DNA of 64,000 nucleotides, taken from contig CAVTWJ010000013.1 of the NCBI GenBank assembly GCA_963738405.1, positions 6,445 through 70,444 on the forward strand, given 5' to 3'. The notes beneath the pieces were generated by a model. The model was not told the DNA's origin. It ran no database searches and saw only the letters and a program-made list of their open reading frames with translations. The DNA is from a candidate division FCPU426 bacterium (lineage in GTDB: Bacteria > Oederibacteriota > Muellerivitia > Muellerivitales > Muellerivitaceae). Shown piece after piece: positions 17,625 through 57,878 of this stretch (the stretch's first letter is position 1; every line of letters begins with the position of its first letter). A program made the translations under genes and the position numbers.

Positions 17625-17628
17625 CGGG

Positions 17629-18315: not shown

Positions 18316-18330
18316 GTGGAAACTTTCCAC
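18316..18330. promoter_or_regulatory. Perfect palindrome GTGGAAA-c-TTTCCAC in the divergent CheX/CheX-like intergenic region
   Basis: Seen directly. The region also carries an 11-bp direct repeat tactatgtaaa at 18225 and 18346. Confidence 0.25.
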
Positions 18331-18397
18331 AAAAAAACTCAGCGGTACTATGTAAAAAATTGAAGCGTTATTTTTTTCCATCCGCAAGGAGAACGCC

Positions 18398-30957: not shown

Positions 30958-31001
30958 GATAAGCCCTTCAAGAAGCGGGCCTCAAGGGTTGTCATGGCTT
31001 G

Positions 31002-31190
31002 TTAATTAATCCCAATTGGAAAGGTTTGAAAATAATGGTCGAAAAAGTGGGGTACTGTTCGGTTGGAACCCGGCCCAGTTTGCGCGTTCTTTCCGCCCTT
31101 CCATTCTTCCAAAAGCGCCTTGAGTTCAATAGGCGCCAGGGTTTCGAATTCTTGTTTTGTGTCCGCTTCTTGAATTTGAGTGTTTTCCAT
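31002..31190 (-). CDS. Possible small acidic protein (62 aa)
   Basis: GGAGA SD 6 nt before ATG 31190. MENTQIQEADTKQEFETLAPIELKALLEEW... No family recognised. Confidence 0.3.
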   Translation of the reverse strand: MENTQIQEADTKQEFETLAPIELKALLEEWKGGKNAQTGPGSNRTVPHFFDHYFQTFPIGIN

Positions 31191-31395
31191 TTGTATCTCC
31201 CTCTTATGCGCCATATTTGACGAACAATAAGAAACTGCCCGGCAAATATCAATGATGGCGGGAACGTCTGGGAAACATGTGGAAAATGAGACTGGGAAAC
31301 GATTATAGGACTGCAACTTTTTCAAAGGGGCGTTCGTCTTATCTAACGGGAAGTAAATGATCCCAAATAAAAAAGAAGTCACTTGGAGGACTTAA

Positions 31396-31584
31396 ATGAA
31401 AAAGTTAATGGTCGCTTTGATGGCAGTATTGTTCCTGGGCAGCACCACCTTGGTGATGGCTCAGACTCCGGTTCCGGCTGCCGCTCCTGCCGCGAAGTCG
31501 CACAAGTCTAAGAAGCACATGAAGAAAATGAAGAAGACCGCTGCTTCCGCGCCGGCCGCTTCGACCACGCCAGTCGCGAAGTAA
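31396..31584 (+). CDS. Small secreted Lys/Ala-rich protein
   Basis: GGAGGA SD, signal peptide MKKLMVALMAVLFLGSTTLVMA, a basic KSHKSKKHMKKMKK core and a strong terminator downstream. Confidence 0.55.
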   Translation: MKKLMVALMAVLFLGSTTLVMAQTPVPAAAPAAKSHKSKKHMKKMKKTAASAPAASTTPVAK

Positions 31585-31631
31585 GTTCTCTTCTTGAAGT
31601 TCATGTAAACCGCCCCCTGGACGGTTTACCG

Positions 31632-31668
31632 GCCCCCGGACCCTGATGGGTTTCGGGGGCTTTTTTTT
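31632..31668 (+). terminator. Rho-independent terminator
   Basis: gcccccg...cgggggc stem followed by T8. A second hairpin gtaaaccg..cggtttac lies just upstream (31605-31629). Confidence 0.7.
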
Positions 31669-31743
31669 AACATGATTTTCTTGGAGCTGAATCCCATGGG
31701 CCGTTAAAATGCGGGTATGCGGGAAGTTCGTATTTAATTATTT

Positions 31744-33186
31744 TTGAGGTATTCCTTGGTTCTTCCTATCCGCCTTTCGTTTTTCGCGGCCCTTCTGTTT
31801 TTATCAAATCTTGCGGTAAGCGCTTTTGCGGCGACCTCCAATGATTACTATCAAGCCGGTTTAAGCCTCTATAACCAAAAAAATTACCTCCAGGCGGTCC
31901 AATATTTCAGCGCGGCGGTTCAGTTGGATTCCAACAACGCGGCGGCATTGCAGGGTAGGGCCAATTGTTATTACGCCCAGGGAAACTATTCTGCGGCCTT
32001 AGCGGATTATCAAAAAGTCCTGGCTCAAAACCCCAACAACGCCCAGCTTTCCCAGTTTGTTCAAGCACTCCAAGCCAAGGTGGGTGCCGCTCCCACTTCC
32101 CCCGCCGCCCCGCCGCTCCCTGGCGCTAGCGCCGGTGACCCGTTCGCCCAAGGTGTCGCTCTTTATGGACAAAAGCAATACCAAACCGCCATACCCTATT
32201 TTCAGCAGGCCGCCCGTTTGGACCCCAATAATGGCAAGCCCAACTATTATCAGGGAATCTGCGAAGTGATGACGGGAGACAATCGGGATGGCGCACTGGA
32301 TTTATCCCTTTCCAACCGGAAGGAGCCTAGCCCCGGTCTTGCCAATTACGTCAATCAATTGATGGCCCGTTTATCGCCGGATGACCAGCAGTGGGTGAAC
32401 GGTCAGCTGGCGGCCGCTCAGAGCGCTTCAGCGGGGTCTAAGTCTTCCGGAGCTATGGGAATTTCCAAAAAATTCGGCATCCGGCTGGAACCCGATTTTT
32501 CTTTAATCACTATGGCGGATTTACAGGCTGAAACCGCCGCAGGGTTAGCCTACGGCAAATTCCTTCAGCAAAATAGCGACCCCAGTACCAGCTACAACGC
32601 TTCGGTACCATCCGGTTTTGTGAACATAGCCTTTGAGCCGGTTTATGAACTGGGCCCCGAACTGGAAGTGGGTCTTCCGGTCATCTATTCAAACGCAGGT
32701 TCGGCGGGTGAAACGCTCACTTCCGGCGGCGTAACCACCATTAACAGCATAACGATTACCGCCATTTGCATTGGGCTTGACGCACGGTACTTTTTCGTTC
32801 AAGACCCCTTAAGGGTTTATGTTGGAGGCGGTCCCATGATCGCATTGGGATCGGCCAGCGTTTCTTCCACCCTCGCCAATTCCGGCGGGGCCGGCACGGG
32901 CATGGCCTTTGGAGGGGAGATTCAACTGGGCGCGGATTACAAGTTGGACCCGAGTATTTCGATCGGCCCCTGGCTGGGTTACCGCCTCCTGACTTTCAGT
33001 TCCTTTTCCGGAACCTCCGGTGGACAAAGCGGGGAATTGTATATCGCTCAAAACCTGTCATCCGGAAGCACCAATTGGCCGATTATCACGGGGGGAGCGG
33101 CGAACCTGACTTCTCAATACTCCCGCCCCCTGCAAGTGGATCTGTCCGGATTGTTCTTCGGCCTTCAAGTGGCGGTCATGTTGTGA
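31744..33186 (+). CDS. Signal peptide - TPR - Pro/Ala linker - TPR - predicted beta-barrel protein (paralog-type of 9525..10730)
   Basis: TPR units (YYQAGLSLYNQKNYLQAVQYFSAAVQLDSNN...), an APTSPAAPPLPGA linker and a Gly/Ser/aromatic alternating C-terminal half. Confidence 0.7.
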   Translation: MRYSLVLPIRLSFFAALLFLSNLAVSAFAATSNDYYQAGLSLYNQKNYLQAVQYFSAAVQLDSNNAAALQGRANCYYAQGNYSAALADYQKVLAQNPNNAQLSQFVQALQAKVGAAPTSPAAPPLPGASAGDPFAQGVALYGQKQYQTAIPYFQQAARLDPNNGKPNYYQGICEVMTGDNRDGALDLSLSNRKEPSPGLANYVNQLMARLSPDDQQWVNGQLAAAQSASAGSKSSGAMGISKKFGIRLEPDFSLITMADLQAETAAGLAYGKFLQQNSDPSTSYNASVPSGFVNIAFEPVYELGPELEVGLPVIYSNAGSAGETLTSGGVTTINSITITAICIGLDARYFFVQDPLRVYVGGGPMIALGSASVSSTLANSGGAGTGMAFGGEIQLGADYKLDPSISIGPWLGYRLLTFSSFSGTSGGQSGELYIAQNLSSGSTNWPIITGGAANLTSQYSRPLQVDLSGLFFGLQVAVML

Positions 33187-33375
33187 TTTTTGTTTCTGAT
33201 TTGCCGGCCTAAAAGCGGTTTCATTCTCGTTTTATAAAATCTTTCAAATTTCTACTCTTCAATCGTTTTCATTTAAAAAAACAAACCTGGCTATGCCAAA
33301 TCTTTACTGGAGGCATGGCCGCTTATCTGTGAATCTATCTGGTCAGATCTATAATGGAAATCCATCGAATGCATA

Positions 33376-34578
33376 GTGTTAGGGGCTTTGTCAATGAACG
33401 GAGTCGCAGGGTTGAGGACAAAAACCTTTCGGAACTTGTTTTTTTGTTTTTTAGGATTGGCGTTCTTTCCCGCTTATCTTGCGTGGGCCCAATGCCCCAA
33501 TAATCCAATCCTCACACCTACTTCTTGGCATGGGGCCGGAGTGACCGCTTCCTATAGCAACATCACTAATCTTTATACGGTCATTGGAAATGGAAACAAT
33601 TCATTCGGACAAGGTGTTGAAACCGGATATGCGGATTTGACTACTTTCCCTGGAAACGGCCAAATTCAGGCTGAGGTTACGAACATTACAGGAAACATAG
33701 GTTTTAATCTGGATGCCGCCGGTATCTTTATTCGGGGAAACAACGGTGCCGGTCCCGATGGAGGGCTTATATGGATTTGGGGTGCGGGAAGCAATCAATA
33801 CCAGGTCGCTTCCAGGGTAAAGGATGGTCCCCTAACCCAACTTCAGTCCGGCCCCTGTTCATTGGCCTATTGGCTGAGAATTCAAAACTCTGGGAATGTT
33901 CTTTATCCGGCGGTTTCGACCGACGGCAGTACCTGGACGCTCTTGCCGGTCTTGGACATGACTTCCGACGCCGAATTTTCTGCGGGCAGCACCTTGGCCT
34001 ACGGCTTGTTCGTTTGGAGTGGAAGCGTAAGTCAGCCGACCACTGCTGTTTTCGGCAATGTTTGTGTTAATAATTCGTTCACGCCCTATCCCACCTTAAC
34101 CCCGGCGGTGACCCCGACCTGGACAACAACGCCAGCCCCTACGGGCACCTTTACAGTGACCTTTTCCCCGACTCCCAGTACCACGGGTTCCCCCACCGCT
34201 ACTCCCAGTGGAACTTGGAACTCTACCCCGACGGCGACCCGAACCCCTACCTTAACTTCGATTCCTACTGCTACCCTGTCGCCTACCCCTACTCCTCTTC
34301 CCCCGACGGGTGTCAAGGTTTGGCCCAATCCCTTTACTCCACAGCTTTCCACGAATAACGTGACCCATTTCCTTCTGGCTCCTGGTCATGGAGCCGGGCG
34401 GTTAATGGTCGCCAACCTGCGGAGGCGACAGATCCGTTCCTTTGATTTTGGACCGGGAGCGGATATCCAATGGGATGGAAGAGATAACGGCGACAACGTA
34501 GTTTCTTCTGGGGTCTATCTTTATCTTTTGGAATCGGATGGCACTGTGCGGCGGGGAACCGTTACCGTGATGCGATGA
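33376..34578 (+). CDS. Secreted protein: concanavalin/LamG-like N-domain, PT linker, C-terminal sorting-type domain
   Basis: Signal peptide, beta-sandwich-like N-domain (...WLRIQNSGNVLYPAVSTDGSTWTLL...), a PT linker and a C-terminus VKVWPNPFTP...IQWDGRDNGDNVVSSGVYLYLLESDG. Confidence 0.8.
   Translation: MLGALSMNGVAGLRTKTFRNLFFCFLGLAFFPAYLAWAQCPNNPILTPTSWHGAGVTASYSNITNLYTVIGNGNNSFGQGVETGYADLTTFPGNGQIQAEVTNITGNIGFNLDAAGIFIRGNNGAGPDGGLIWIWGAGSNQYQVASRVKDGPLTQLQSGPCSLAYWLRIQNSGNVLYPAVSTDGSTWTLLPVLDMTSDAEFSAGSTLAYGLFVWSGSVSQPTTAVFGNVCVNNSFTPYPTLTPAVTPTWTTTPAPTGTFTVTFSPTPSTTGSPTATPSGTWNSTPTATRTPTLTSIPTATLSPTPTPLPPTGVKVWPNPFTPQLSTNNVTHFLLAPGHGAGRLMVANLRRRQIRSFDFGPGADIQWDGRDNGDNVVSSGVYLYLLESDGTVRRGTVTVMR
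34081..34308. repeat. Coding Thr/Pro linker repeat
   Basis: TPYPTLTPAVTPTWTTTPAPTGTFTVTFSPTPS...LSPTPTPLPP. Confidence 0.9.
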
Positions 34579-36428
34579 GTGGAGAAAAGGTCTACCATAG
34601 GGGCATGAAAAGACCGCCGCGGACTACCCCACGTCCGGTTACAAAAAAAAACATTTATTATCTTCAGCTGTGTCTTTGCATTTTCGTGGCTACTCCCATT
34701 TGTCTGAAAGCCCAGTCCTCTTTTTTAGATTTCTGTCCGCCCGCCCGGGAAGCGGCGCTGGGCGGAAATGGAGTGGCTTTACCCGAAGGTATCTCCAGCC
34801 TGGCTTTCAACCCGGCGGGACTGGGGAACCTGAGTCTTTTTAAGGTTTCGGCTCGTTATGAAAATCTCTTTTCGGGGATCGAGGGGGATGATCTTTCCAC
34901 AGGGAACCTTTCAGCCGTTCTTCCACTTGAATCGGGCGATGGAATTGGATTTTCTCTGGACCATTTCGGCTCCAATAACCTTGAACAAGACCGGTTGCAG
35001 GCGGCTTTCGGAAAGAGTTTTGAGGCCAGTTCCTTTCTCCATTCCCTGCGTCTGGGCTTCGATCTGTCTTTTATGCGCCAGCAATTCATTCTTCTGGCCC
35101 CCTTGGCGGGGGTGAACCCCGCCAACGTTTCGGCAAGCGCCTTTTCGATGGGGGCCGGCGCCCTTTATGACGCTTTCCCCTGGGCGACCCTGGGACTTTC
35201 CGCTGAGAATTTAAACCAGCCGAACCTGGGTGTGGTGGGAATTGATGAAATTCCCCTGTTGGTCCGCTATGGAGTGGCGGTCCGGCCAAGCGTTGGAGAG
35301 GATCATCTAGTGCTTAATCTTTCTCAATCCTGGAGCGGGGGCGACTTGGAGACCCAGGCAGGCGCCGAATGGAATTTCACCCATTGGGGCGTGTCCCTTC
35401 GGGTGGGAGGTGATTCGAACATGGGGGTGGCCGGATTCGGCTGGCAAAACGACGGCTTGACTATCGACTACGCCTATCAATTTTCATGGAACGAAGCGCC
35501 TTCTTTGGACGGGGTGGGGCTTCCGGGAAGCCATCTGTTGGAAGTGGGTTTTTCCTGGGGAACGACGACCCGGGATGAAAAGGTCTTCCAGGATCTGTTG
35601 TTTAAGGGTCAGCAGGCGTCGAAGGACAAAAAATGGAAAGAAGCCTTTTGGTATTTTCAGCAGGCTTCCTTGCTCCAGCCGGACAATCCCACGGTTCTCC
35701 AGGGCCGTTCCGAATCCCTGCGGCAATACAACCTCCAGCGGGCGGAAACCTATTATCAGGAAGGGCTTCATGACGAGGGGCAGGGTAATTTCGGTGAGGC
35801 GAAACGAGATTATGAATGGGCCGTTTCCCTTGCGCCGGGAGAAGGCACCTATTCTATTGCCAGGGACCGAATGAAAAAGGCCCTCACCCAGGGGGCCTTG
35901 GGGGATGCCCGGGTCAGGGACCTGTTAGAAAAATCGGTCAAGCTCTTTAAAAAGGGCGAAAGGGACTCGGCCTTGAAAAAAATCAAGGAAGCGCAGGTTC
36001 TATATCCCGAGGACGCCTTCCTCCAATTTGTGGCGAAGGCCTTTGCCCGAAAGGATGTTTCGCCGACCGACAAGGAAAGTAAAAAAATCCAACAGCTATC
36101 CGCGGAGGCCGAAATTTTCCGGAGCAAAGGACGTTTGGATCTGGCCCGGGATACCTGGCAGGAAATTCTGAAATCGGACCCCGCCAACGGATTGGCCAAG
36201 GAGAATTTGTCGGAAAGCAATTCTTCCGAAACAACCTCCAATCTGACCGAATCCCAAAAAGCACAAGTCCAGACGCTTTTGCAGAGGGGCTTGAAAGCTT
36301 ACGCCGACGGGGACACGGAAGCGGCGTTGAATGATTGGCAGGAAGTCCTTCAGATTGACCCGGTTAACGTGAATGCCTTGAACAACCTGACACGGGTCAA
36401 GATGGAAGAAGGGGAAGGCAAAAAATGA
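34575..36428 (+). CDS. PorV/PorQ/FadL-like outer-membrane beta-barrel fused to a C-terminal TPR domain
   Basis: ATGA overlap with the upstream cargo gene. Signal peptide, then ...PPAREAALGGNGVALPEGISSLAFNPAGLG..., the N-terminal signature I associate with PorV/PorQ-family barrels. About 280 aa of TPRs follow from residue about 340. Confidence 0.5.
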   Translation: MSGEKVYHRGMKRPPRTTPRPVTKKNIYYLQLCLCIFVATPICLKAQSSFLDFCPPAREAALGGNGVALPEGISSLAFNPAGLGNLSLFKVSARYENLFSGIEGDDLSTGNLSAVLPLESGDGIGFSLDHFGSNNLEQDRLQAAFGKSFEASSFLHSLRLGFDLSFMRQQFILLAPLAGVNPANVSASAFSMGAGALYDAFPWATLGLSAENLNQPNLGVVGIDEIPLLVRYGVAVRPSVGEDHLVLNLSQSWSGGDLETQAGAEWNFTHWGVSLRVGGDSNMGVAGFGWQNDGLTIDYAYQFSWNEAPSLDGVGLPGSHLLEVGFSWGTTTRDEKVFQDLLFKGQQASKDKKWKEAFWYFQQASLLQPDNPTVLQGRSESLRQYNLQRAETYYQEGLHDEGQGNFGEAKRDYEWAVSLAPGEGTYSIARDRMKKALTQGALGDARVRDLLEKSVKLFKKGERDSALKKIKEAQVLYPEDAFLQFVAKAFARKDVSPTDKESKKIQQLSAEAEIFRSKGRLDLARDTWQEILKSDPANGLAKENLSESNSSETTSNLTESQKAQVQTLLQRGLKAYADGDTEAALNDWQEVLQIDPVNVNALNNLTRVKMEEGEGKK

Positions 36429-37837
36429 AGCTAACGACCCGGTTTTCACTCAGCCACAGCGGGGTCGTTGTGGTGGCCCTTCTTGTTAGTTTTTTACTCG
36501 TATATGAGGGGTCGCGTTATTTGTACCTTCGACAAGCCAAGCAGAGTCAGGCTCAGGAAATTTCCGATTTTGCTCTCGCTGCCAAGGAATCCTTGATTCA
36601 ACACGAAGACGTGGCGGTCTTGAATTTCATGAAATCTGTGGTGAAAAATCCTACGGTAGCCTACGCGGCCTATTCCAATCCCGCCGCCGGAATGCCCGTT
36701 GTGTTGCCGTTGGAATTCCAGAAGGAAGTGTTTCCCTCCGGAATGGTCAAATGGGGCTCCGATAAAAACCCTTCGTCCCGGCGCCTTCGAAACGGCCTAG
36801 AGGTCTTGGAGTGGACAGGATCGGTTCCGGTGGGCAACGGAATGATGAGTCATGTATGGCTGGGTTATTCCGTCGCGGCCATGAACCGTGATCTGGAAGA
36901 GCAAACGGCGAGGTGGATGCGGTTGGAATTGGAGGCGGGTGTCGCCGCGCTGCTCGTGGGTTTATTGGTGTCCATAACCCTGGGCCTTCAGATGGCTGCT
37001 CCCCTGAAAAAAATCAGCAATGGAACCCATTTGGTTCGGTCGGGCCAGTTGGGATCCCTGGTGGGAGTCAAGCGCAACGATGAGATCGGGGACTTGGCCC
37101 GGGATTTCAATGCCATGGTAGTTCAGCTCAAGGAGTTGGATGAAATGAAAAGGGACTTTATGGCGGGGGTCACCCACGACTTGGGAACTCCCCTCCACGC
37201 GATCCGAAGCGCCATCAATTATCTCCAGGCCGGGGACGCGGGACCGCTGACTGAAAAACAAACGGAATATCTTTTGTTGGTCGCCAACAGTACGGCCCAC
37301 TTGACTGCCTTTATCAACAATCTTTTGACGACCGCGCGCATTGAGGCGGCAAAAGTGGACCCCTATCCGGAACCGGTGGATGTCTTCGCCCATGTCAAGG
37401 AACTGGTGACCCTCTACCAGCCCCAGGCCGCCGAGAAGGGGGTCCGGCTGACTCTCGTGAAAAAGAACCCATATATTTCACTGGTCGCGGATGTGACCAT
37501 GTTCCGCCAAATCGTCCTGAACCTTATTTCCAACGCCCTGAAATTCACGTCCCGGGGGGAAGTGGATGTCATTCTGTCGGAGGAGGACGGGGACTTTATC
37601 CTGGAAGTCAGGGATACGGGAATCGGTATTGATCCCGCCCACCACCAGCTTATCTTTGATAAATTTTACCGGGTTCACCAGCCGCCGGGAACGCCCGCTC
37701 GTCAGGGAAGCGGGCTGGGCCTGACAATCGTTAAGGGTTTAACCGAAGCCCATGGTGGAAAAGTGGTGGTGGAGAGCGCGCTGGGGAAGGGAAGCGATTT
37801 TAAAGTGATCCTACCCAAGCAACCAAGGAGAGGTTGA
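36425..37837 (+). CDS. Sensor histidine kinase (TM - periplasmic domain - TM - HAMP - HisKA - HATPase_c)
   Basis: H-box MAGVTHDLGTPLHAI, N-box LISNALKFT, G-boxes VRDTGIGI and GSGLGLTIV. ATGA overlap with the upstream gene. Confidence 0.9.
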   Translation: MKLTTRFSLSHSGVVVVALLVSFLLVYEGSRYLYLRQAKQSQAQEISDFALAAKESLIQHEDVAVLNFMKSVVKNPTVAYAAYSNPAAGMPVVLPLEFQKEVFPSGMVKWGSDKNPSSRRLRNGLEVLEWTGSVPVGNGMMSHVWLGYSVAAMNRDLEEQTARWMRLELEAGVAALLVGLLVSITLGLQMAAPLKKISNGTHLVRSGQLGSLVGVKRNDEIGDLARDFNAMVVQLKELDEMKRDFMAGVTHDLGTPLHAIRSAINYLQAGDAGPLTEKQTEYLLLVANSTAHLTAFINNLLTTARIEAAKVDPYPEPVDVFAHVKELVTLYQPQAAEKGVRLTLVKKNPYISLVADVTMFRQIVLNLISNALKFTSRGEVDVILSEEDGDFILEVRDTGIGIDPAHHQLIFDKFYRVHQPPGTPARQGSGLGLTIVKGLTEAHGGKVVVESALGKGSDFKVILPKQPRRG

Positions 37838-37900
37838 AATGAAAACCTATGGGCGCGTCGATTTCTATCTATCTCAATCCGCCGGATTAGGGGAGGAAAC

Positions 37901-38593
37901 ATGAAACAACCTTCGATACTCATGATTGAAGACGACCCATCCGTTTCAACCTTAACTCGTGACCTTTTTTTAAAAGAAGGGTACAAAGTTCGTATGTCGT
38001 CCAAGGCCATGGAAGGCTGGGACATTCTCCAAAAGGAAGAATTTGACCTTTTAATACTAGATTTGGGTTTGCCGGATATGAACGGCTTGGATCTTTGCAA
38101 CAAGATCAAGAGGGATCCGGCTCGGGGACAAATTCCTATTTTTATCCTGACGGCCTTAGGTTCCTCGGAGGATATCGTCAAAGGTTTGGAAGCGGGCGCC
38201 GAGGACTATCTTTCCAAGCCTTTCAACGAGCGGGAATTTTTGGCCCGGGCCCGGGCGATCTTGCGGAGGCACGATCCGCTTGTCACGAAGGATGAACAAA
38301 TCATTTCCGGGAAAATTAAATTGTCCTCCGCGTCCCACGAGGCTTGGAGTTCGGACGCGCCGATCCAGCTCACCCTTCGGGAATTCGATATTCTTCGTGT
38401 CTTTCTTCTCAATCCGGGAAAGACCCTGACGCGGGAAGAAATGGTGAGGATGGCATGGGGACCCGCCACAACGATTGTTTCCAAAGTGGTGGACGTTCAC
38501 GTTGGCCACCTGCGCGCGAAGTTGGGGGCGGAAGGAAAAAGAATCGCTACCGTTCCTCAAGTTGGATACAAGCTGGTTCCTGTTAAGTCCTGA
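37901..38593 (+). CDS. OmpR/PhoB-family response regulator
   Basis: ILMIEDD, DLLILDLGLPDMNG, LTALG and SKPF, plus a winged-helix output (LTLREFDILRVFL..., VDVHVGHLRAKL). Confidence 0.9.
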   Translation: MKQPSILMIEDDPSVSTLTRDLFLKEGYKVRMSSKAMEGWDILQKEEFDLLILDLGLPDMNGLDLCNKIKRDPARGQIPIFILTALGSSEDIVKGLEAGAEDYLSKPFNEREFLARARAILRRHDPLVTKDEQIISGKIKLSSASHEAWSSDAPIQLTLREFDILRVFLLNPGKTLTREEMVRMAWGPATTIVSKVVDVHVGHLRAKLGAEGKRIATVPQVGYKLVPVKS

Positions 38594-38772
38594 CACGCCT
38601 CGCGCTAAAACCCGAAAAAATTTCACGACCTTCCGAAAAATATTCTTTCAAAAACTTTTTAAAAATTTTTCCGCCCGCCCACAATCTGTTAAACGTCAAA
38701 CACTCTGAAAAAACGTTTCGAGCCGAAACCGCTTTCATGAATTGGATCGGTTTAAGCAAATATCGATATGAG

Positions 38773-38804
38773 TTCTTTACCACATCTATACCGCTTCTTT
38801 ACCA
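38773..38804 (+). promoter_or_regulatory. Candidate response-regulator box: TTCTTTACCA direct repeat, 22-bp phasing
   Basis: Exact 10-mers at 38773-38782 and 38795-38804, about 130 bp upstream of the giant surface-protein gene and about 180 bp downstream of the OmpR-family gene. Confidence 0.3.
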
Positions 38805-38933
38805 GGCCCTTAAGGAATTGCGGGTAACCTTACATCAAGCGACAAACGATTTCTGAATTTCCAGTTCCTGCCGGAATGGAATAAATAAAAAAATGCTTTC
38901 TGAAACCGATTGAACTCGGTTCGAGGATGTTCA

Positions 38934-41900
38934 ATGGCCGTTACGGGGATGAATGTGGGTGCTTCCGTTGAATCGGCGGGCACTTTCAAAAAAATAAAAT
39001 TATTTTTGATTCGATTGAAAAATGTTTTTTTCAGTGTATGGAAGCTTTTGTGCTTAAAACCTTCCGGCTGTGTTCGACCGCATTTCACTTTCCTCATAAT
39101 TTTGTCGTTTATCTTATTTGCTTCTTCTCATGCGAAGGCCCAAGTTTGGCCCAACGGTTGTTTCACCAGCGGCCTCACTGATTGGTCGTCGGTGGTGAAT
39201 GCAGGTACGAACGCCACTGCGGGAGGGTTGAATGGTGTAGGCGGCACTGGCAATTGCGTCGGCCAGGTTCTCCAGGTAACAAATGCCACGGTCTATCCGG
39301 GGCAAACGGCCCCCGGCTTCGCCCCGAATTCAAACGGATTGCTTCCCATGGTGCCCCCGGGCCAAACGACGGCCGTACAGCTCTTCTCCGGCCATGGCGA
39401 CCAAAACCACAGCGACTGGGCTAGGGTTTGCCAGACAACAACCGTTCCCACCAATGGAAACACCTGTTTGAACTTTCTTCTGGCCGGGGTTTTTGAGAAC
39501 TACCATTTTAATAATCCTGGACAGCGCGCGGATGACGCCTTCATGGAAGTTCGTATTGTTCTGGGGGCGGCCAATTGCAACGCTCAGCCACCCGCAAATC
39601 CGGTCATTTATGACCTTGTGGTTAATTGGATATACCTTAACGGATCGGGTCTTCTCCAGTTGGACGGACTTGAAGGAAACGGGGCCGGAACCTATGGGAC
39701 CGCTACCGCCTGTCAGGTGAACGGCGATAACCCCCCCAATGACCCTTGCGATTGGGGAATCCTTCCCTGGACCCCCTACGAACTGAACCTTTGCCAATAC
39801 GCCGGCCAACAAATCACCATTGAGGTATCGACCTACGATTGCCTGGAGAGCGGACACTATTGCTGGGGTTATTTTGACTGTCCGACCTGGGGCTCTTGTG
39901 CCCCCGCTCCCGTCACTTTAACAAAATCCAACAGTCCAACCGGTCGAGTAAGCGAGGGTCAAACCATCACCTATACTCTGAATTATCAAAACACGAGTTC
40001 AACACAATTCACCGATGGAGTCGTGATCTATGACACGATTCCCACCGGCACGGGCTATGTGACCGACTCCCAAGCCAGCAACCCCTATATGCCGGTGACC
40101 TTTGCCAACACGTCCGGCCGGGGGGTCGTGAGTTTGGTAGGATGGGACATAGGATATTTAAAACCGCTGGCGTCGGGAACCCTTTCCTTTGCTGTGACTG
40201 TTGGCCCCTTGGCTAACGGCGCATGCGCAGAAACGATCGTCAACCAGGCGGCAGAGACCGACGACCTTACTTGTTATTTGGTTCCGAATATATTGACATC
40301 CAATTCCGTTACCAATGTTGTGGGCTATACCTGCACACCAAGCCCCACTAAAACTGCGACGCCGTCACCTACCAACACCATCACCCCGACACCCAGTAAG
40401 ACTCCAACCCTCACCCCCACGAACACTCCAACACCAACTCCTACGAATACCCCAACTAACACACCTACGCCCACGCCCACTTGGACTCCCACGAATACGC
40501 CCACCTATACACCGACTCCAACCCCCACGAACACTCCGACGGAAACACCAACTCCCACCGACACAAAGACTCCTACTAATACCCCTACGAATACTCCAAC
40601 CCCTACCCCAACCAACACTCCGACGAATACTCCAACAGTTACTCTCACCCGCACCCCCACTAATACCTATACCCAAACACCGACTCCTACTCCTTCTAAT
40701 ACTCCTACCGACACGCCGACTCCGACTAATACCCGGACGCCCACCAATACGCCGACCCAAACCCCGACACCCACACCCACCAACACTCCAACGGATACCC
40801 TGACCGCGACTCCAACCCGGACTCCTACCAATACACCCACGGTCACCCATACTCCCGTTTTTACCTACACCCAAACCCCCACGAGTACTCCCACCAACAC
40901 GCCCACTGTGACCTTTACGCCTACTCCCACCAACACACCGACGAATACCCCCACGCCCACCCCAACCTTTACACCCACCCTGACACCCACTCAAACCTTC
41001 ACCCCGACTCCGACCATTACCCCCACGAATACCTTTACCGCCACACCGACCGCAACCCCGACCAATACCCGTACGATCACTTGGACCGCGACGCCTACGG
41101 TAACACCCACCAATACCTTTACGCCGACCTCAACCCTGACGCCCACCAATACTCCGACGACGACACCGACCCGCACTCCCACGAATTCGTCTACTTTTAC
41201 CCCCACGGTAACCCCGACCTATACGGCAACCAACACCTTCACCTGGACCATTACTTGGACGCCAAGCTGGACTCAAACCCCCACCTCAACCCCCACCATG
41301 ACCCCGACCCCCAGCCCCACGCCTGTTTATTTACTCACCAAACAAGCGTCGAAATACACCGCTACCTCCGGTGACCTGGTAGTCTTCCAGCTCAACCTTT
41401 ATCTTCCTAATTCCATACCCGCAGGCGCCGTGATTACCGACCAACTTCCGGTGGATGTCAATTTCAAGGACTTCCAACAGAGCCCCTCCGGCTCTACCGC
41501 CTCCCAAACCGGTTCCACCCTCAGCTGGACCTTGCCCGCCCTTCCAGCCGGGGTCTATCCCTTTACTTACGAGGTGGGAATCGATAATTTCCTTCCCAAT
41601 GGGGAACAGTTGGTGAACACCGCGGTATTTAACTCATCCTCCCTGCCGCCCCTTTCCGCCGCCGCGACGGTTCTCACGGTGGGGCAGTACGTCATCAAGT
41701 TGGGTGTCTATAACGAGGCCGGGGAATTGATTTACAGCTTCCCGGTCACCACCATGACCCAGCCCGTCGGGTCGCTCCAGGCGCCCCTAACCGTCCTCCA
41801 AACGGCAACTGATGTGGTGAAGATCTATTTTGACGGGGCTCTTTTAGGCCAATGGAACGGCAACACTAATTCGGGCACACCCGCCACCAACGGCACCTAT

Positions 41901-42584
41901 CACGTCCAGGCGACCAGTGTTGATTCTCTCGGCACCATCAATACCACCACGCTCCAAGTGGTGGTGAACCGGTCCTACTCCCAAGTTACGGTGGAAGTGT
42001 TCAATGAAGCGGGAGAAGTGGTGCGCCATCTCTACGGCACACTGGCGGCGCCCGTGAGCGTCCAGATGGCGGGGGTCGATCTTTCCGCGGAAAGTTTCAA
42101 CCCCTACGCCCCGCCGACCCAGCCTCAAGACACGGTCCTCACCATCACGGATTCTCAGGGCGCTGCGGTGTCTCTGACTTGGGATGGGCGCAATGACAGC
42201 GGTGTCGTGGTGACCACCGGAAGATACCTTCTTTCGGTTCATTGGAAGGATGGCACCGGCGACGAACAGACCATCAATAAGTACGTGACCTTAATGGACG
42301 CGGGAGGGCCCGCGGGCTTGGTGACCGCTAGGCCGAATATCTTGAGGGGCAGGGGCGCCTCCACCCAAATCGTGGCAAGCCAGCAGGGATTGACCCTAAC
42401 GGTTCAAATCTACGATTTGATGGGGGAGATGGTGGATAAGGTGGAAGGTCCGGCGGGTCAAAGCCAGGCGGTTTGGTCGGCGTTAAAAGCGGCGAGCGGC
42501 CTTTACTTGGCGGTGGTGGATCTGACGGACGCAGCGGGAAATAGGGTTTCCCGGCAGATCCTCAAGTTAGTCGTGACCCATTAA
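38934..42584 (+). CDS. Giant secreted adhesin-like protein: Cys-rich N-domain, DUF11-like repeats, about 330-aa PT repeat, several FlgD-Ig-like C-terminal domains
   Basis: GAGGA SD plus ATG 38934 (the track starts at TTG 38910). Signal-like [19 protein letters not shown], then [11 protein letters not shown] / [10 protein letters not shown]-terminal [16 protein letters not shown]...[20 protein letters not shown], and a final ...[11 protein letters not shown]...[11 protein letters not shown]...LKLVVTH. Confidence 0.85.
40335..41323. repeat. About 1-kb uninterrupted coding (T-P-T-x)n repeat
   Basis: [45 protein letters not shown]... through ...[12 protein letters not shown]. Every alternative frame gives artefact ORFs. 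Confidence 0.9.
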
Positions 42585-42638
42585 TCTCAACATCTCCTCT
42601 GTTCTCTGGGGATGTTGAAAAAAGTTTAAGGAGAAAAG

Positions 42639-42803
42639 ATGGAAGAAAACCTCAACAAACGTTCAGCGGGTCAAGATGCAAATACCATCCTCGAAAAATG
42701 GTATGAGGATGTGGTTTATTCCGTCGCCGAGCAAATTGAGCTAGAACGCCAGAATGGGATTGCCGACAAAGCCAAAACCCACCCTTTTCCCTCTCAATCG
42801 TAG
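42639..42803 (+). CDS. Possible 54-aa protein, below the ORF-track cutoff
   Basis: AAGGAG SD 7 nt before ATG 42639. MEENLNKRSAGQDANTILEKWYEDVVYSVAEQIELERQNGIADKAKTHPFPSQS, stop at 42801-42803. Confidence 0.3.
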   Translation: MEENLNKRSAGQDANTILEKWYEDVVYSVAEQIELERQNGIADKAKTHPFPSQS

Positions 42804-42861
42804 GATTCTTAGCCCGCCTTTGGGTATAATTCCCCGCCCATAAAAAATTGAAGGGGAATCC

Positions 42862-44409
42862 ATGACCCAGTTTCAAAGCTTTAACCGCTTTTTCGCATTC
42901 TTTCTTTCAATATCCCTCGCCTTTGCCGTGACGGCTCTTGCCGAAGAGTCCACCCCATCAACCCCCGCCCCCGACCAAACTTCATCCGACATGAACCTTC
43001 CCGTCATTGAAAAAACTTTGAGCAATGGCTTGAAAGTCCTCGTCGTGGAAGAGCCGGGAATTCCCGTTGTGTCCTTCTCTTATATGCAGCCCGTCGGGGC
43101 CCAGGACGCTCCCAAGGGCAAAACGGGACTGCCCCATATGTTGGAACACATGATGTTCAAGGGCACCGAGACCATCGGGGCCAAAGATTACTCCAAGGAA
43201 GAACCCATCTTGGAAGAGCAGGACAAGGTGGCCGCCGAGATTAACGAAGAAAACGCCAAGTTGGAACCCAATCCCGACCGCTTGAAGGAACTGGCCGGGG
43301 AAATGAAAAAGCTTCAACTTGAAGACCGCCAATGGGTCATCAAGGACGAACTGGATTCCATCTATACCCAAAACGGGGGCCAAAGCCTCAACGCCTGGAC
43401 CAGCCAGGACGCAACTAATTACACCGTGACCCTGCCCGCCAATAAAGTAGCCCTTTATGCCACCATCGAACAGGACCGCCTGACCCATCCGGTCTTCCGC
43501 GAGTTTTATTCCGAGCGCGACGTGGTGGCCCAGGAAAGGCGCTGGCGCACCGAATCCAGTCCTGACGGCAAGCTGGAAGAGGCGCTGGAATCCACGGCTT
43601 TTTCCGCCAGCCCCTACAAGGACCCGGCCATCGGCTGGATGGGCGACATCCACAAACTTATGCGCCCCGACGCGGTGCAATTTTACCGAAGCTCTTACCG
43701 GCCCGACCGGGGGGTGCTGGCGGTAGTAGGCGGGGTGAAAGCGGACGAGGTTTTGCCTCTCTTTGAGAAAACCATCGGCCAGGTGCCCAACCCCGATGTG
43801 CCTCCCTTGAAGCAGGCCTGGACCCAGGAACCTCCCCAACAGGGCCCCAAAACAGTTCGGGTGTCCTTTGACGCCGACCCCATGGTAATGATGGGCTGGC
43901 ATATCCCCAACTTTCCCCATAAAGACTCGGTGACGCTGGATGTGCTTTGCGACATCCTTACAAGTGGCAATACCTCTCGCCTGGTGAAGGGGCTGGAACT
44001 GGAAAAGAAGATGGTGACCTCCATCAGCGCCTCCACCGGCTATCCCGGCGATCGCTCCCCCGACTTAATGGTGATGCAGTTCAACCCCGCGCCCGGGCAA
44101 AAGGAAGACAAGATCATCTCGGCCATCGAGGCCGAAATCGCCTCCATTCAAAAGAAGGGCGTTACCCAAGAGGAAATGGACCGGGCCCGCCGGGGAACCG
44201 AATCCTCTTTTCTATGGGGCAAGACCAGCCCCTCCGGGCTGGCCACCGACCTGGCCTATAACCAGGCCGTCCATGGCGATTACCGCTACCTGGCGAAATA
44301 CATCGATATGGCCAGCGCCATTACTTCGCAGGATATCCAAGCCGCCGCCAAAACCTATCTGGTGACCGACAACCTTACGACCGCTTATTTGGAAAGGGCC
44401 AAGCCATGA
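42862..44409 (+). CDS. M16-family (pitrilysin/insulinase) zinc peptidase, catalytic subunit
   Basis: Signal peptide, then the inverted zinc motif HMLEHMMFKGT (HxxEH). Confidence 0.9.
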   Translation: MTQFQSFNRFFAFFLSISLAFAVTALAEESTPSTPAPDQTSSDMNLPVIEKTLSNGLKVLVVEEPGIPVVSFSYMQPVGAQDAPKGKTGLPHMLEHMMFKGTETIGAKDYSKEEPILEEQDKVAAEINEENAKLEPNPDRLKELAGEMKKLQLEDRQWVIKDELDSIYTQNGGQSLNAWTSQDATNYTVTLPANKVALYATIEQDRLTHPVFREFYSERDVVAQERRWRTESSPDGKLEEALESTAFSASPYKDPAIGWMGDIHKLMRPDAVQFYRSSYRPDRGVLAVVGGVKADEVLPLFEKTIGQVPNPDVPPLKQAWTQEPPQQGPKTVRVSFDADPMVMMGWHIPNFPHKDSVTLDVLCDILTSGNTSRLVKGLELEKKMVTSISASTGYPGDRSPDLMVMQFNPAPGQKEDKIISAIEAEIASIQKKGVTQEEMDRARRGTESSFLWGKTSPSGLATDLAYNQAVHGDYRYLAKYIDMASAITSQDIQAAAKTYLVTDNLTTAYLERAKP

Positions 44410-45842
44410 AAACAACCTTTTCGTCCTTCAATCTAATCAAGATCGCTTCTATTTATGCCTTCCTTGCTCTTCTGGGAACTGCGGTTTGTGCCAAACCGCC
44501 CCAGTTTCCGCCTGAAACGCCTTTGGAAATAAAAGTTCCCGATATCCATGTCAAAACCCTTTCCTGCGGACTGAAGGTTCTCTTCATTCACGACGACCGC
44601 CTGCCTCTTGTTTCTGGCTCCCTCCGCATTCCGGGCGGCAATGTCTCGGACCCGCAAGGCAAGGAAGGTCTGGCGGCCCTGACGGCTGAGTCCCTTCGTA
44701 ACGGCGGTGCGGGAAAACTCAAACCCGGGGCTTTCGACGAGGCGCTGGAAAATAAGGCCATCTCCATGGGCTGTACCAGCGAGACGGAAGACTTTAACGC
44801 CACCTTCAATTGCCTGGCCCCCGATCTTTCGGAGGCTTTGGGATACTTCGCTGACCTGATTCGCCACCCGGGGTTTGACGCCAAACGTTTGGCTACCGAC
44901 CAATTGGACCAGGCGGAGGATTTAAACCGCGTGGAAGACACCCCCGATTCCATCACCAGGGTCCTTTTTACCAAGACTCTCTTTGGGCAGTCGCCTTACG
45001 GCCGGTGGGGAAGCCCCGCGACAGTTAAAAAGCTGAATCCCAACGACGTGAAGAATTTTTACGGAAAGCATTTCGGTCCCAAAGGATCTGTGCTGGTGGT
45101 GACCGGTAAGTTTGATGAGGATCAGGTTTCCGCTGAGCTGGAAAGACTCTTTTCAGGATGGAAGGCTCAGGGTCAAACACCCGCATATGCCGATGCCGAG
45201 CCCATGGGCCCCACGATTTACTTCTTCCCTAAGGATGTGACCCAGGTTTTTATCCGCTTCGGCCTGCCGGGTTTGAAGCGCCACGACCTCAATGACATAC
45301 CTCTTCAAGTCGCCAATTACGTATTGGGCGGTTCGGGCTTCACCTCGCGCTTGATGAGAGAAATTCGCTCCAATCGGGGGCTGGCCTACTTTGTGGATAG
45401 CTACTTCCTGCCCTATAACATCAAAGGCCCTTTCCAGGTTGTGGGAGGAACCCGGCCCGATTCGGTGAAGGAATATTTGACGGTCATGTTTGATCAGTTA
45501 GCCCAATACGCAAAGGAAGGTCCCACCGAAGCCGAGATGGAAGCAGCCCGGAAGGGAATGATTGAGGAATACGCTTATAACTTCGAATCATCTTTTAATC
45601 TCGCCACTTACGAAGGTTCGTTGGCCTTTAATGGCTACCCGGATGATTATCTGGAAACCTTCCGTGACAAGATCAAGGCCGTCACCGGGACCCAAGCCGC
45701 CGAAGCGGAACAAGCTGTTTTGAACCAGAAGAATTGGGTGCTGGTGGTTTGCGGGCCTGATGGTTTGCAGAAGGACCTGGAAGGTTTCGGTAAGGTCGTG
45801 ACGATGAAGAGCGTCTTCGCGCCGATTCCCGTAAAACCTTAA
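44406..45842 (+). CDS. M16-family peptidase, non-catalytic partner subunit
   Basis: M16 fold pattern but no HxxEH (GLAALTAESLRNGGAG at the equivalent place). ATGA overlap with the upstream gene. R/Y pair region ...SRLMREIRSNRGLAYFV. Confidence 0.85.
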   Translation: MKTTFSSFNLIKIASIYAFLALLGTAVCAKPPQFPPETPLEIKVPDIHVKTLSCGLKVLFIHDDRLPLVSGSLRIPGGNVSDPQGKEGLAALTAESLRNGGAGKLKPGAFDEALENKAISMGCTSETEDFNATFNCLAPDLSEALGYFADLIRHPGFDAKRLATDQLDQAEDLNRVEDTPDSITRVLFTKTLFGQSPYGRWGSPATVKKLNPNDVKNFYGKHFGPKGSVLVVTGKFDEDQVSAELERLFSGWKAQGQTPAYADAEPMGPTIYFFPKDVTQVFIRFGLPGLKRHDLNDIPLQVANYVLGGSGFTSRLMREIRSNRGLAYFVDSYFLPYNIKGPFQVVGGTRPDSVKEYLTVMFDQLAQYAKEGPTEAEMEAARKGMIEEYAYNFESSFNLATYEGSLAFNGYPDDYLETFRDKIKAVTGTQAAEAEQAVLNQKNWVLVVCGPDGLQKDLEGFGKVVTMKSVFAPIPVKP

Positions 45843-45850
45843 TCAGGAAT

Positions 45851-45888
45851 AAAAAACCCAGGTTCTTTAGAATCTGGGTTCGTGTTTT
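45851..45888. terminator. Bidirectional hairpin terminator between the M16 operon and tRNA-Glu
   Basis: A6-aacccag-12 nt loop-ctgggtt-cgtgtttt. Confidence 0.5.
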
Positions 45889-45962
45889 GGTAGCCCCACG
45901 GGGAATCGAACCCCGATTTAATGGCTGAGAACCATCCGTCCTAACCGTTAGACGATGGGGCC
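45888..45962 (-). tRNA. tRNA-Glu(CTC): tRNA-Glu, anticodon CTC, CCA encoded
   Basis: The reverse complement folds as GGCCCCA-TC-GTCT-AACGGTTA-GGAC-G-GATGG-TTCTCAG-CCATT-AAAT-CGGGG-TTCGATT-CCCCG-TGGGGCT-A-CCA. Confidence 0.95.
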
Positions 45963-48011
45963 GTACCTCTTCGAAAATTCAAAAAGCATTAAAGAGGGAT
46001 GGATTTTAGGAAAAACCAACCTAACTATCAACCTGGAATTTCCACTGCGAGCGGAGTCTGCAACAGGGCGCCCCATCCTCCATCCCGAAAATCTCGATTA
46101 TAATCGCTTCGTGATTTCTCAACTCGCCACCCATTTTTCCAAGGGCCGAAAGGTTTGGACCCAGCCTTGGGTTTGGGCTCTTCTTTCTTGTTTTCTCCTT
46201 TTAGCGCTCCTTGCTTGCCGCAAGGATTGGGACGCGGATTTGGGGATCCATTTAAAGGGAGGGCAATGGATCACGCAAAACCACCGGGTACCTTCCTCCG
46301 ACGTTTATACCTACTCGGTCCCCGACCATCCTTTTCTTGATATCGAATGGCTCTACCAATGTGCTTTTTTCCTGATATTCCTCGCGGGGGGCTATTCGTC
46401 CGTTTCTGTTTTCAACATCCTTTTGATATTGCTAGCCTTCGGCGTCAGTTGGATGCGCTTAAGGGAAACCAGATGTCCCCTTTGGCTGGGGGTGCCCCTA
46501 TTGGCTTGGGCGGTTTTAGCCTGCGAATTTCGTTTTCATGTCCGCCCAGAAAATCTTAGTTGGCTCCTCATGGTAGGAATGCTTTGGGTGTTGGAAGAAA
46601 GGGCCCGAGGTAGGCCAAACCGCCTTTGGCTTCTTCCTCTTCTGCAATGGGTGTGGGTCAATACAGAGGGGATGTTCCCTCTTGGGTTGGCCTTGATTGT
46701 CATTTTTCTGGTTTCCCACTGGATTCATAATCGCAAAATAGACATACCCTTGGCCGGTTATGGAGCCCTGTCCACCGCTGTTTGTTTTCTTAACCCTTAC
46801 GGATTGGATGGGTTTCTTTATCCCCTTGCCATTTTAAAAACCCTCCATTCGGAAGTCTTCAAAAGCAACATCATGGAGTTCGATTCGCCTTGGAACCCCA
46901 TCCATCCCGACGCCATTCCGAACCAGGTTTGGATGTACAAGATATTCTGCCTATTCCTCCTTCTGCTTTTGCTTGCCACCTTTCGACGGCGTAAGGCACA
47001 TGAGTTTCTTCTGGCGGGGTTCTTTTTCTACTTTTCGGCTACGGGTGTGCGCCAAATACCTCTTTTCATACTCGCCTGCCTGCCTGTCGCTGGGGCCTGC
47101 TGGAAGGATTTGCCCTGGCTGGGTGTGCGTAAATTTCAGGAAACTTTTCTATCTGGCAACCTAACAGCCTGGGTCTTTTCCCTCTTACTCTTGGGTCTTG
47201 GGGTGAGGGTTGTGACCAACGCCTTTTACGTTTCCGGCCAAAGGCCTGAGCATTTTGGTTTGGGAGTGGATGGGGAATCCTTGCCGGTCCGCGCCGCCGA
47301 TTTCCTGATTCAAAACCACCTGGACGGACGAATCCTCAATGAACTGGGGTGCGGGGATTGGCTGGAGTGGAGTGGGCAAAAGGTTTTCATTGACGGCCGG
47401 TCTGAAGTGTTCGGAGAGGATTTTTTCTCCCAATATGTGTCTTCAAGGCAAGGAGGCGGGGTGATCCCTCTGGCGGATAAGTACCGGGCGGACATCATCT
47501 TTTTCTCGCTCCCCAATCCCTGGCTTGCTGGCCTGCAAGGGTCGGGTGACTGGCGGAATGTATATTATATATAGATGGAACGGCGGCGATTTTTCTCCGC
47601 AAGGGGTATGCCCCTGAAGTTCCGGCAGTCCAAGACGTCCAACTGATGAAGTCGGAGAGCGTCGGGGCGGATATTCTTAGCCAAGCCCCGGGCCTTTTGG
47701 CTTTACGCAAAACCTCGGACTGGAATGTTTTTTGGGAGGGTTTTTACCAACGCTCGATATATCCCATAAGGCTTGCCCGAATGGGGGCCTTTTTATTTTC
47801 AATGAACCATCCGCAGGCGGCGGTGGCCTTTTACCTGGAGGCGATACGCCGTAGTGGGGGGCGTATGGGCATCTTTTACCTCAATTTGGGCCAATTTTAT
47901 TACGTACTGAAGGACTATCCCGATGCCAGACTTTGCTTGGAAAGGGTACTGGCGGACAACCCGCAAAATTCGCAGGCCCGGCACATTTTGGAAGCTTTAC
48001 CGCCTTCTTAA
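45955..48011 (+). pseudogene. Polytopic membrane protein with a C-terminal TPR, split by a frameshift at a (TA)4 run. The true start lies downstream of the tRNA overlap.
   Basis: ORF 45955..47574 ends ...GDWRNVYYI-stop inside tatattatatatag. The frame of ORF 47646..48011 is open from about 47550 and reads ...IDGTAAIFLRKGYAPE...TPR. Removing one TA joins them. Confidence 0.6.
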
Positions 48012-48142
48012 GGCGGGAAATTTAATCAACCGCCTATCGCCTATTTCTGATCCAATATGATTTGCCGAACATCATTTAGGAAAAAAAGATTAAAACAGAG
48101 TGCGGAGGCAGTGCTTCAACCTCAGGCTGGGTTTCCTCAAGT

Positions 48143-48172
48143 TGAATATATGAATAAATAGGAATATATTCA
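48143..48172. promoter_or_regulatory. Candidate ArsR/SmtB operator (AT-rich inverted repeat)
   Basis: TGAATATAT-12 nt-ATATATTCA, with nested ATATGAATA/TATTCATAT, about 20 bp upstream of the ArsR-family start. Confidence 0.4.
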
Positions 48173-48192
48173 TATAACTACGGGGAGGCCTT

Positions 48193-48525
48193 GTGATTGA
48201 TCCATCCTTTGTTTTCAACATCAAAGCAGACTTTCTGAAAGCCCTGGCCCATCCGGGCAGGCTCAGGATCATTGAGCACCTGAAGCACGGGGAAAAATCG
48301 GTCAACGAAATGTGTAAGGCCTTGGAAATGGAGCAATCCGGCCTTTCCAAGCACCTGTCCGTCCTGAAACAGGCGGGAATCCTGAGTTCCCGCCAGGAAA
48401 AGGTGACCGTGTTCTATTTTGTCAGGGACAAGGGAATCTACGATGTTTTGAAACCCATTACCCTATTCCTGAAAAAAAAGTTTAAAGAGAGCCAGGTCAT
48501 GTTGGATCAATTGGCTAAAAACTAA
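48193..48525 (+). CDS. ArsR/SmtB-family transcriptional regulator
   Basis: FLKALAHPGRLRIIEHLKHGEKSVNEMCKALEMEQSGLSKHLSVLKQAGIL. GTG start with a GGGGAGG SD. Confidence 0.85.
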   Translation: MIDPSFVFNIKADFLKALAHPGRLRIIEHLKHGEKSVNEMCKALEMEQSGLSKHLSVLKQAGILSSRQEKVTVFYFVRDKGIYDVLKPITLFLKKKFKESQVMLDQLAKN

Positions 48526-49290: not shown

Positions 49291-49363
49291 CGGTTTTGGG
49301 TTGGTGAATGAAGGACGACACCTTGGCTGGATGGGTTGGAAGCGGAAAGGAAGCAACGATTCT

Positions 49364-53343: not shown

Positions 53344-53351
53344 TAAATCGG

Positions 53352-54260: not shown

Positions 54261-54264
54261 AAAA

Positions 54265-54906: not shown

Positions 54907-54910
54907 CCGG

Positions 54911-57857: not shown

Positions 57858-57878
57858 GGCCCTTCATGGAGGCGAGAA

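Follow-up and report, generated by a model that had tools for sequence, protein, structure and literature searches.

Seven genes on one strand of a 64-kb stretch of DNA from an uncultured soil bacterium of the candidate phylum FCPU426 (64,000 nucleotides, all of it referred to below as the window) raise the question of which of them work together, and to what end. A sequence-only reading had taken all seven for a single system of surface-protein export and processing, made up of a secreted protein with a C-terminal domain (CTD) as cargo, an outer-membrane barrel fused to TPRs, a two-component system, a giant adhesin as a further cargo and a pair of M16 peptidases. Comparison with related loci pointed to a smaller unit. 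The real unit is a four-gene operon that encodes a secreted partner protein, a PorV-like barrel-TPR protein, a histidine kinase and an OmpR-type regulator. As judged from the sequences, this unit (the module) probably senses something at the cell surface and switches on neighbouring surface-protein genes. Our overall reading, for which we see the chances as balanced, is that the PorA-PorV-PorY-PorX signalling route of Porphyromonas has an analogue here, encoded in one operon.

Gene Order in Related Loci

All seven open reading frames (ORFs) were recovered (Table 1), the overlaps of stop and start codons (ATGA at 34575, 36425 and 44406) were read directly in the sequence, and the domain assignments of the sequence-only reading were upheld by Pfam and NCBIfam. 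What did not stand was the grouping of the seven genes as one system, since the recurrent unit consists of the barrel-TPR, kinase and regulator genes together with the partner gene, and the M16 pair is a mere neighbour.

A protein search yielded 48 full-length barrel-TPR fusions with 33–79% identity, all from uncultured bacteria, and a scan of one genome per species yielded 14 loci, all in metagenome-assembled genomes (MAGs), of which six bear the name candidate division FCPU426, the others being labelled uncultured bacterium or proteobacterium. Gene order was compared in these 14 loci and in contigs retrieved for single homologs, the loci being about 20 kb long and designated by L numbers; the 24 non-redundant contexts comprise candidate division FCPU426 MAGs and metagenome contigs. 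That the two-component system belongs with the barrel and the CTD protein was borne out, with a HAMP histidine kinase found after the barrel-TPR gene in all 24 contexts and the response regulator next wherever the contig continues. The order of these three genes persists down to about 30% identity and into a lineage of 68% guanine-plus-cytosine (GC) content (L028), and L023, with 302 bits against the family profile, is among the most distant relatives that carry the trio. In orthologs, the ATGA overlaps between partner and barrel genes and between barrel and kinase genes recur, and in the FCPU426-type family the trio is accompanied by a partner protein with a private CTD. The neighbourhood is conserved for the trio and, in the FCPU426-type family, for the CTD partner, but not for the M16 pair. 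Two modules of differing type (L014 and L019) occur together in at least one MAG, and several modules are adjoined by genes for glycoside hydrolases (GH9, GH10, GH18 and a GH5 cellulase) and DUF5010 proteins.

The kinase consists of a first transmembrane segment (residues ~13–30), a periplasmic domain (~30–168) and a second transmembrane segment (~169–190), followed by HAMP, HisKA and HATPase domains. All domains expected of an OmpR/PhoB-type two-component pair scored above the Pfam cut-offs in kinase and regulator. Mean identity was 46% for the TPR arm of the barrel protein, 44% for the periplasmic domain of the kinase and 73% for its cytoplasmic part; the arm and the sensor domain are the fastest-diverging of the conserved parts, at similar rates.

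The locus L022 (MAG MFD04780.bin.2.20) holds a copy of the module and of the M16 pair in which many frameshifts interrupt the genes for barrel, kinase, regulator and M16 proteins; the cause could be a faulty assembly or the decay of a duplicate of L013.

Table 1. Positions in the window of the genes, domains and repeat elements discussed in the text.
Feature	Position	Strand	Remarks
Operator-like motif CTATGCCAAATCTTTACTGG	33291..33310	+	Two 11-bp direct repeats, 66 nt upstream of 33376
Partner protein (gene 1)	33376..34578	+	Signal peptide, ~195-aa head, Pro/Thr linker, module-specific CTD
Partner head, weakly ConA-like/DUF1349	33490-34074	+	~195 aa
Partner module-specific CTD	~34312-34575	+	Ends RGTVTVMR
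PorV-like barrel with TPR arm (gene 2)	34575..36428	+	14-strand barrel ~48-330, arm 333-613
Sensor histidine kinase (gene 3)	36425..37837	+	HAMP-HisKA-HATPase
OmpR/PhoB-type response regulator (gene 4)	37901..38593	+	Receiver and Trans_reg_C
Three 11-bp direct repeats TTCTTTACCAC ATCTATACCGC TTCTTTACCAG	38773..38807	+	Upstream of adhesin gene
Adhesin-like surface protein (gene 5)	38910..42584	+	Cys-rich N-domain, DUF11, ~325-aa Pro/Thr linker, FlgD_ig repeats, T9SS type-A-like CTD
M16B peptidase pair (genes 6 and 7)	42862..45842	+	Active subunit 42862-44409, inactive partner 44406-45842

The Barrel-TPR Protein

The N-terminal motif on which the comparison with PorV/PorQ shuttle proteins had been based is present in gene 2, and TPRs cover residues ~340–617; Pfam searches with the window protein returned TPR families only. 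An AlphaFold (AF2) model built on 29 homologs (predicted local distance difference test (pLDDT) score 78.7) predicts short N-terminal helices, 14 beta strands (residues 89–328) and an all-helical arm. The best Foldseek matches of this predicted structure in the PDB were the PorV chains 8gl6_F and 6h3i_F of Flavobacterium translocon complexes, with template modelling (TM) scores of 0.62–0.65, followed by FadL and TodX at 0.4–0.5. As the full-length profile was swamped by TPR matches, PDB sequences were searched with barrel-only profiles, and PorV was the sole match among all of them (E 0.012), the most conserved motif of the family aligning with PorV residues 32–114.

Among 16 barrel domains tested, the PorV_fam model (PorV/PorQ) matched 16 and the PorP/SprF model 11, in every case below the cut-off, and FadL-type NCBIfam models matched none. 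The proposal of a PorV/PorQ-like barrel is therefore supported by sequence, fold and profile results, with scores that remain below the cut-offs. We conclude that the barrel is PorV-like and not FadL-like; because the formal score tests failed, it is classed outside the PorV, PorQ and PorP families.

An exhaustive profile search of 1.8 billion representatives retrieved a tight core (24 proteins, E up to 1e-30) and, beyond it, a long tail of stand-alone and extended barrels. The C-terminal additions in 58 extended distant relatives included LysM (16), TPR (14) and OmpA (9), all of them periplasmic modules, which fits a periplasmic arm. A homolog search with distant fused barrel relatives returned the query only. 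In a 14-strand barrel, both termini lie on one side. Since the number of strands in the model is even, the TPR arm would by inference be located in the periplasm.

The Partner Protein and Its C-Terminal Domain

Translation of gene 1 likely starts at the ATG at 33394. Its signal peptide, Pro/Thr linker and C-terminal domain were recognised by eye; there was no significant Pfam match to the protein, the CTD giving sub-threshold matches to FlgD_ig and CHU_C only. This CTD of ~88 aa is strongly conserved among relatives, with the pattern PNPFTP...F...H...L...WDG...GVYLYLLE...RGTVTV(M/L)R. The protein that carries it is usually encoded just upstream of the trio, with the ATGA overlap, and in L008 and L018 just after the regulator.

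Because a homolog search with the CTD profile gave short fragments only, the exclusivity of the domain was tested on related loci, using non-redundant related DNA (377 kb) translated in six frames. Each of 15 modules yielded one protein with a profile score of 128 bits or more, the frameshifted copy of L022 scored 80 bits and the copy of L017 is truncated; the next best score anywhere in the 377 kb was 25 bits. In the 64-kb window, the domain occurs as a single copy. The coupling of the barrel to a CTD-bearing protein, as it had been proposed, was supported in that adjacency and ATGA overlap recur and the CTD is exclusive to modules.

In a large protein database, true members of the private CTD family scored at least 85 bits, and its distant kin were generic FlgD_ig/type A sorting domains of other phyla, at 59 bits or less. 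These generic relatives are proteins annotated as carrying T9SS (type IX secretion system) type A sorting domains. The partner's own CTD gave no match to TIGR04183, and no type B CTD model matched the partner at E up to 0.1.

The heads of the partner proteins vary with module type and include Malectin (1e-20), an NHL propeller (1e-27) and PA14 with CBM9 (1e-21 to 1e-31); one further head type gave a weak CBM11/CIA30 match. No PDB sequence relatives of the partner head in the window were found.

Operator-Like Repeats and the Adhesin

The CTATGCCAAATCTTTACTGG element is conserved upstream of the partner gene in orthologous loci and is followed ~40 nt downstream by TATAAT, with the same spacing in orthologs. 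Its 11-bp direct repeats share the core TCT[T/A]TAC. The triple repeat upstream of the adhesin gene (TTCTTTACCAC ATCTATACCGC TTCTTTACCAG) recurs before the adhesin orthologs of L009, L015 and L022. With up to three mismatches, the motif matched the 64-kb window twice (33291–33310 and 38786–38805), against 0.01 matches expected.

A weight matrix built from the operon sites only and scanned over 438 kb gave ~35 matches against ~2 expected, about two-thirds of them outside the training set. These further sites are almost exclusively intergenic and lie beside the module. They precede adhesin orthologs (L009, L012, L020, L015 and L022), even where the adhesin gene lies upstream of the module, as well as AraC genes (L001, L003 and L011), the gene of an SBBP beta-propeller protein (L001) and that of an S53 peptidase (L014). 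Scans of 31000–48500 for sigma-70 promoters and terminators gave no more matches than shuffled sequences did. Direct repeats spaced ~11 bp apart are typical of the sites of OmpR/PhoB-type regulators, and by this analogy we infer that the module's own regulator may bind the repeats.

The adhesin ORF encodes 1224 aa from a TTG or 1216 aa from the ATG at 38934. Its tail scored 21.6 bits on TIGR04183/PF18962, for which the cut-off is 23. Ordinary surface proteins of the related loci, the adhesin included, have a tail that differs from the private CTD and ends in ...LKLAVVH; 13 of 14 such tails matched the T9SS type A sorting domain model (best E 6.9e-7). No PDB sequence relatives of the adhesin N-domain were found. 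The view of the adhesin as a cargo of this barrel was not supported, its tail being of the ordinary type-A-like kind and not the CTD of the module. As the motif stands upstream of both the module operon and the adhesin gene, the adhesin is a probable regulon target of the module.

Imperfect tandem repeats of 24–84 bp at 40383–41069 encode the ~325-aa TPTNTPT linker of the adhesin and account for the strong negative GC skew (−0.39) of 40001–42000.

Proposed Mechanism and Alternatives

PorA of P. gingivalis, a small secreted CTD protein with a FimH-like head, has been found on the surface in PorV-bound form. Within the periplasm, the PorA CTD binds the sensor kinase PorY and thus switches on PorX-SigP (PMC7712824, PMC12152298). 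The module has the same parts list, i.e., a CTD protein with a lectin-like head, a PorV-type barrel, a kinase and a regulator. Whereas the genes of the PorA route are scattered in P. gingivalis, those of the module form one operon, and it differs further in the TPR arm on the barrel, the private CTD subclass and the differing heads. The module's regulator is OmpR-type and DNA-binding, whereas PorX of P. gingivalis is PglZ-type and acts through SigP. As the regulator is not PorX-type and no extracytoplasmic function (ECF) sigma factor was found near the module, we regard the relation to PorA-PorXY as functional analogy and not as membership.

The contacts between the proteins, their topology and the direction of signalling are proposed as follows. 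The partner would be exported by Sec, and its private CTD would target it to its own barrel, comparable to type B CTD/PorP-SprF pairs and to the binding of PorA to PorV. The state of the complex would be passed to the periplasmic domain of the kinase, either via the TPR arm or by the CTD itself, as the PorA CTD acts on PorY; the state sensed could be occupancy, binding of a surface ligand or build-up of unexported partner. The regulator would then bind the TCT[T/A]TAC repeats and control, besides its own operon, nearby genes whose products are surface or secreted proteins, the target here being the 1216-aa adhesin and, in relatives, AraC regulators, an SBBP beta-propeller protein or an S53 peptidase.

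Several observations weigh against this reading. The window barrel reached 49–52 bits on NF033709 (cut-off 90), over the first half of the profile only, and ~20 bits on NF033710 (cut-off 250) and NF033711 (cut-off 220); on the PorP/SprF models TIGR03519/PF11751, it scored 35–38 bits against a cut-off of 90.55, over nearly the full length. The conserved 195-aa head of the window clade matches DUF1349 (ConA-like) weakly only, and the single-sequence AlphaFold model of the window partner was unusable (pLDDT 33.7). In L028, the CTD protein encoded upstream has a generic tail and its gene does not overlap the barrel gene, so that the private CTD is not universal to the trio and the trio is older than the private tail. 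The binding of the motif by the regulator is argued from the usual behaviour of OmpR/PhoB-type proteins. Finally, the regulator of the Malectin-type paralog L005/L019 (7753–9520 in L005) is a receiver-only protein of 127 aa without a DNA-binding domain, and that module's output may accordingly run by a different route. A gene for a solute-binding/AraC fusion lies upstream of this paralog.

A more specific form of the mechanism, which we put forward only tentatively, is modular outside-in sensing, in which a lectin-headed protein sits on its own barrel and a surface ligand signals via the TPR arm directly to the kinase. If this were true, the module would represent trans-envelope signalling of a new class, assembled from T9SS parts, in which diversified glycan-binding heads control adhesins and polysaccharide-degrading enzymes, and would be a functional counterpart in a candidate phylum of the sensors of Bacteroidota polysaccharide utilisation loci.

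A less likely but credible reading is that the barrel-TPR protein is only a SprF/PorP-like shuttle or anchor for its own lectin, with the kinase and regulator answering some other periplasmic signal and having no physical link to it. Cognate type B CTD/PorP-SprF shuttle pairs, which exist without a kinase, and a PorE(TPR)-PorP-PG1035 complex have been described (PMC12618676, PMC9143113). In such pairs, the gene of a CTD protein adjoins that of its own small outer-membrane barrel, by which the CTD protein is anchored or targeted, and in the module, too, a CTD protein is encoded beside the barrel; the distant barrel relatives with LysM or OmpA in place of the TPRs mean that the C-terminal arm could be purely structural. 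PorP, however, works with the TPR-containing periplasmic PorE, whereas the TPRs of the module are fused to the barrel and do not form a separate lipoprotein; the CTD of the module appears type-A/FlgD_ig-like and not type B, and its barrel scores nearer PorV_fam than PorP/SprF. Unlike those pairs, the module always has a kinase and a regulator attached: wherever a context reaches beyond the barrel-TPR gene, the kinase gene comes after it, even at deep divergence and often with an ATGA overlap. That the TPR arm and the sensor domain of the kinase diverge in step likewise speaks against a pure anchor.

A FadL-type channel for the uptake of a hydrophobic or oligosaccharide nutrient, with the partner as binding protein and the two-component system regulating uptake, is improbable. 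FadL and TodX were the next-best fold matches, the Toluene_X model touched 5 of the 58 distant relatives and glycoside hydrolase genes lie close to modules, but the profile results (FadL models on none and PorV_fam on all of the 16 family members), the alignment of the N-terminal motif with PorV and the T9SS-style CTD of the partner, related to type A sorting domains, all point away from it.

The M16 Peptidase Pair

Genes 6 and 7 encode two proteins with M16 and M16_C domains, HxxEH being present in one subunit only, as in M16B heterodimers: gene 6, which encodes a signal peptide, has the motif as HMLEH at residue 92, and gene 7 lacks HxxEH. Signal peptides are apparent on both subunits. The closest solved relative of the active subunit is the Sphingomonas heterodimeric M16B peptidase 3amj (1.6e-54). 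Its pair Sph2681/Sph2682 likewise combines an active HxxEH subunit with an inactive partner encoded by overlapping genes, and genes 6 and 7, which show no notable difference from it, form an ordinary member unrelated to the module.

An M16 pair stands beside the module only in the window and in L009, L015, L022 and L026, which in the barrel-TPR tree form two neighbouring subclades of the closest orthologs. In other orthologs, its position is taken by an AraC regulator, an adhesin or an S53 peptidase, and no M16 genes were found at any paralogous or distant module examined. The M16 pairs have a common TATAAT promoter-like region (window 42800–42861; L015 14150–14211; L026 8020–8085), with the upstream element ...GGTAGGTTTCT...AGCTATAATCCCACCCTCCAAATAGCC in L015 and L026 and GGGTATAATTCCCCGCCC in the window, which suggests independent, possibly constitutive, transcription. 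No operator motif was found upstream of any M16 pair in the loci scanned.

As the linkage is patchy and the closest relative generic, the pair is treated as an ordinary heterodimeric M16B peptidase and, by its sequence and distribution, a neighbour only; its inclusion in the module was dropped. That no PorU-like sortase is visible was confirmed, with neither a C25 family sortase nor a T9SS core gene found among the window ORFs scanned. It is highly improbable that the M16 heterodimer replaces the PorU sortase in removing CTDs and forms, with the barrel-TPR protein, a variant CTD-handling module, since its place directly after the regulator in L015 and L026 and near the module in the window, L009 and L022, the two apparent signal peptides and the missing C25 sortase are outweighed by its absence from the other ortholog loci and all paralogous and distant modules, its own promoter-like region free of the operator motif and its generic M16B kinship.

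Other Features of the Window

The M16 pair is followed by the sole strong terminator-like hairpin in 31000–48500 (45855–45880). An Rfam scan of the window detected two tRNAs only, at 45891–45962 (−) and 8339–8412 (+). The former lies right after the M16 pair and overlaps the annotated start of ORF 45955–47574, a multi-pass membrane protein without a family match.

Just upstream of the module, 31744–33186 (+) encodes N-terminal TPRs followed by ~240 aa that by eye resemble amphipathic barrel strands; the product may be a TPR/outer-membrane barrel fusion in the opposite order. This gene was rejected as a member of the unit, not being conserved beside the module in other loci. ORF 9525–10730 (+) has a similar N-terminal TPR layout and is not conserved beside the module elsewhere.

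The flanks of the window hold chemotaxis, redox, transporter and Mrp/complex-I-like genes. Two transposase/integrase (rve) genes (2574–3641 (−) and 5409–6251 (+)) lie near its left end, next to a TPR_12-rich gene (3651–4784). A chemotaxis cluster at 13496–18399 (−) encodes a methyl-accepting chemotaxis protein, a CheA-like kinase with a CheW domain and a CheX-like protein. The 776-aa product of 25175–27505 (−), with no Pfam family and a weak DUF11-type repeat match only, may be another surface protein. At 48631–58658 (+), a regulator with helix-turn-helix and PTS-EIIA domains is followed by a run of Mrp-antiporter/complex-I-like subunits (three Proton_antipo_M proteins, NADHdh, a 49-kDa/30-kDa fusion and a 20-kDa subunit with 4Fe-4S), which resembles a membrane-bound hydrogenase or Mrp-type complex.

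Relation to Known Systems and Significance

No paper describing the module was found in the literature searched. In NlpE-CpxA, RcsF-Rcs and FecA-FecR-FecI, an outer-membrane component reports the state of the envelope or surface to an inner-membrane transducer. These systems rely on lipoproteins or TonB-dependent transducers, and the module has no sequence relationship to them. In a paper on PorA, NlpE and RcsF are cited as well (PMC12152298).

A 2025 paper on PorA proposed that a T9SS sorting domain serves as a kinase ligand too and asked about equivalents elsewhere. The module resembles this idea hard-wired in one operon, complete with a PorV-like barrel of its own, ligand-binding heads that can be swapped and an operator that can be read. 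Should this be borne out, it would mean that pairs of CTD protein and shuttle serve signalling as well as secretion, outside Bacteroidota too, and the module's four genes and promoter motif would offer a compact handle on how an outer-membrane shuttle and an inner-membrane kinase communicate. A link has been drawn between FCPU426 16S sequences and Goldbacteria, a candidate phylum that degrades cellulose (PMC7031533), and the module could therefore explain how adhesins and glycoside hydrolases are controlled in such organisms.

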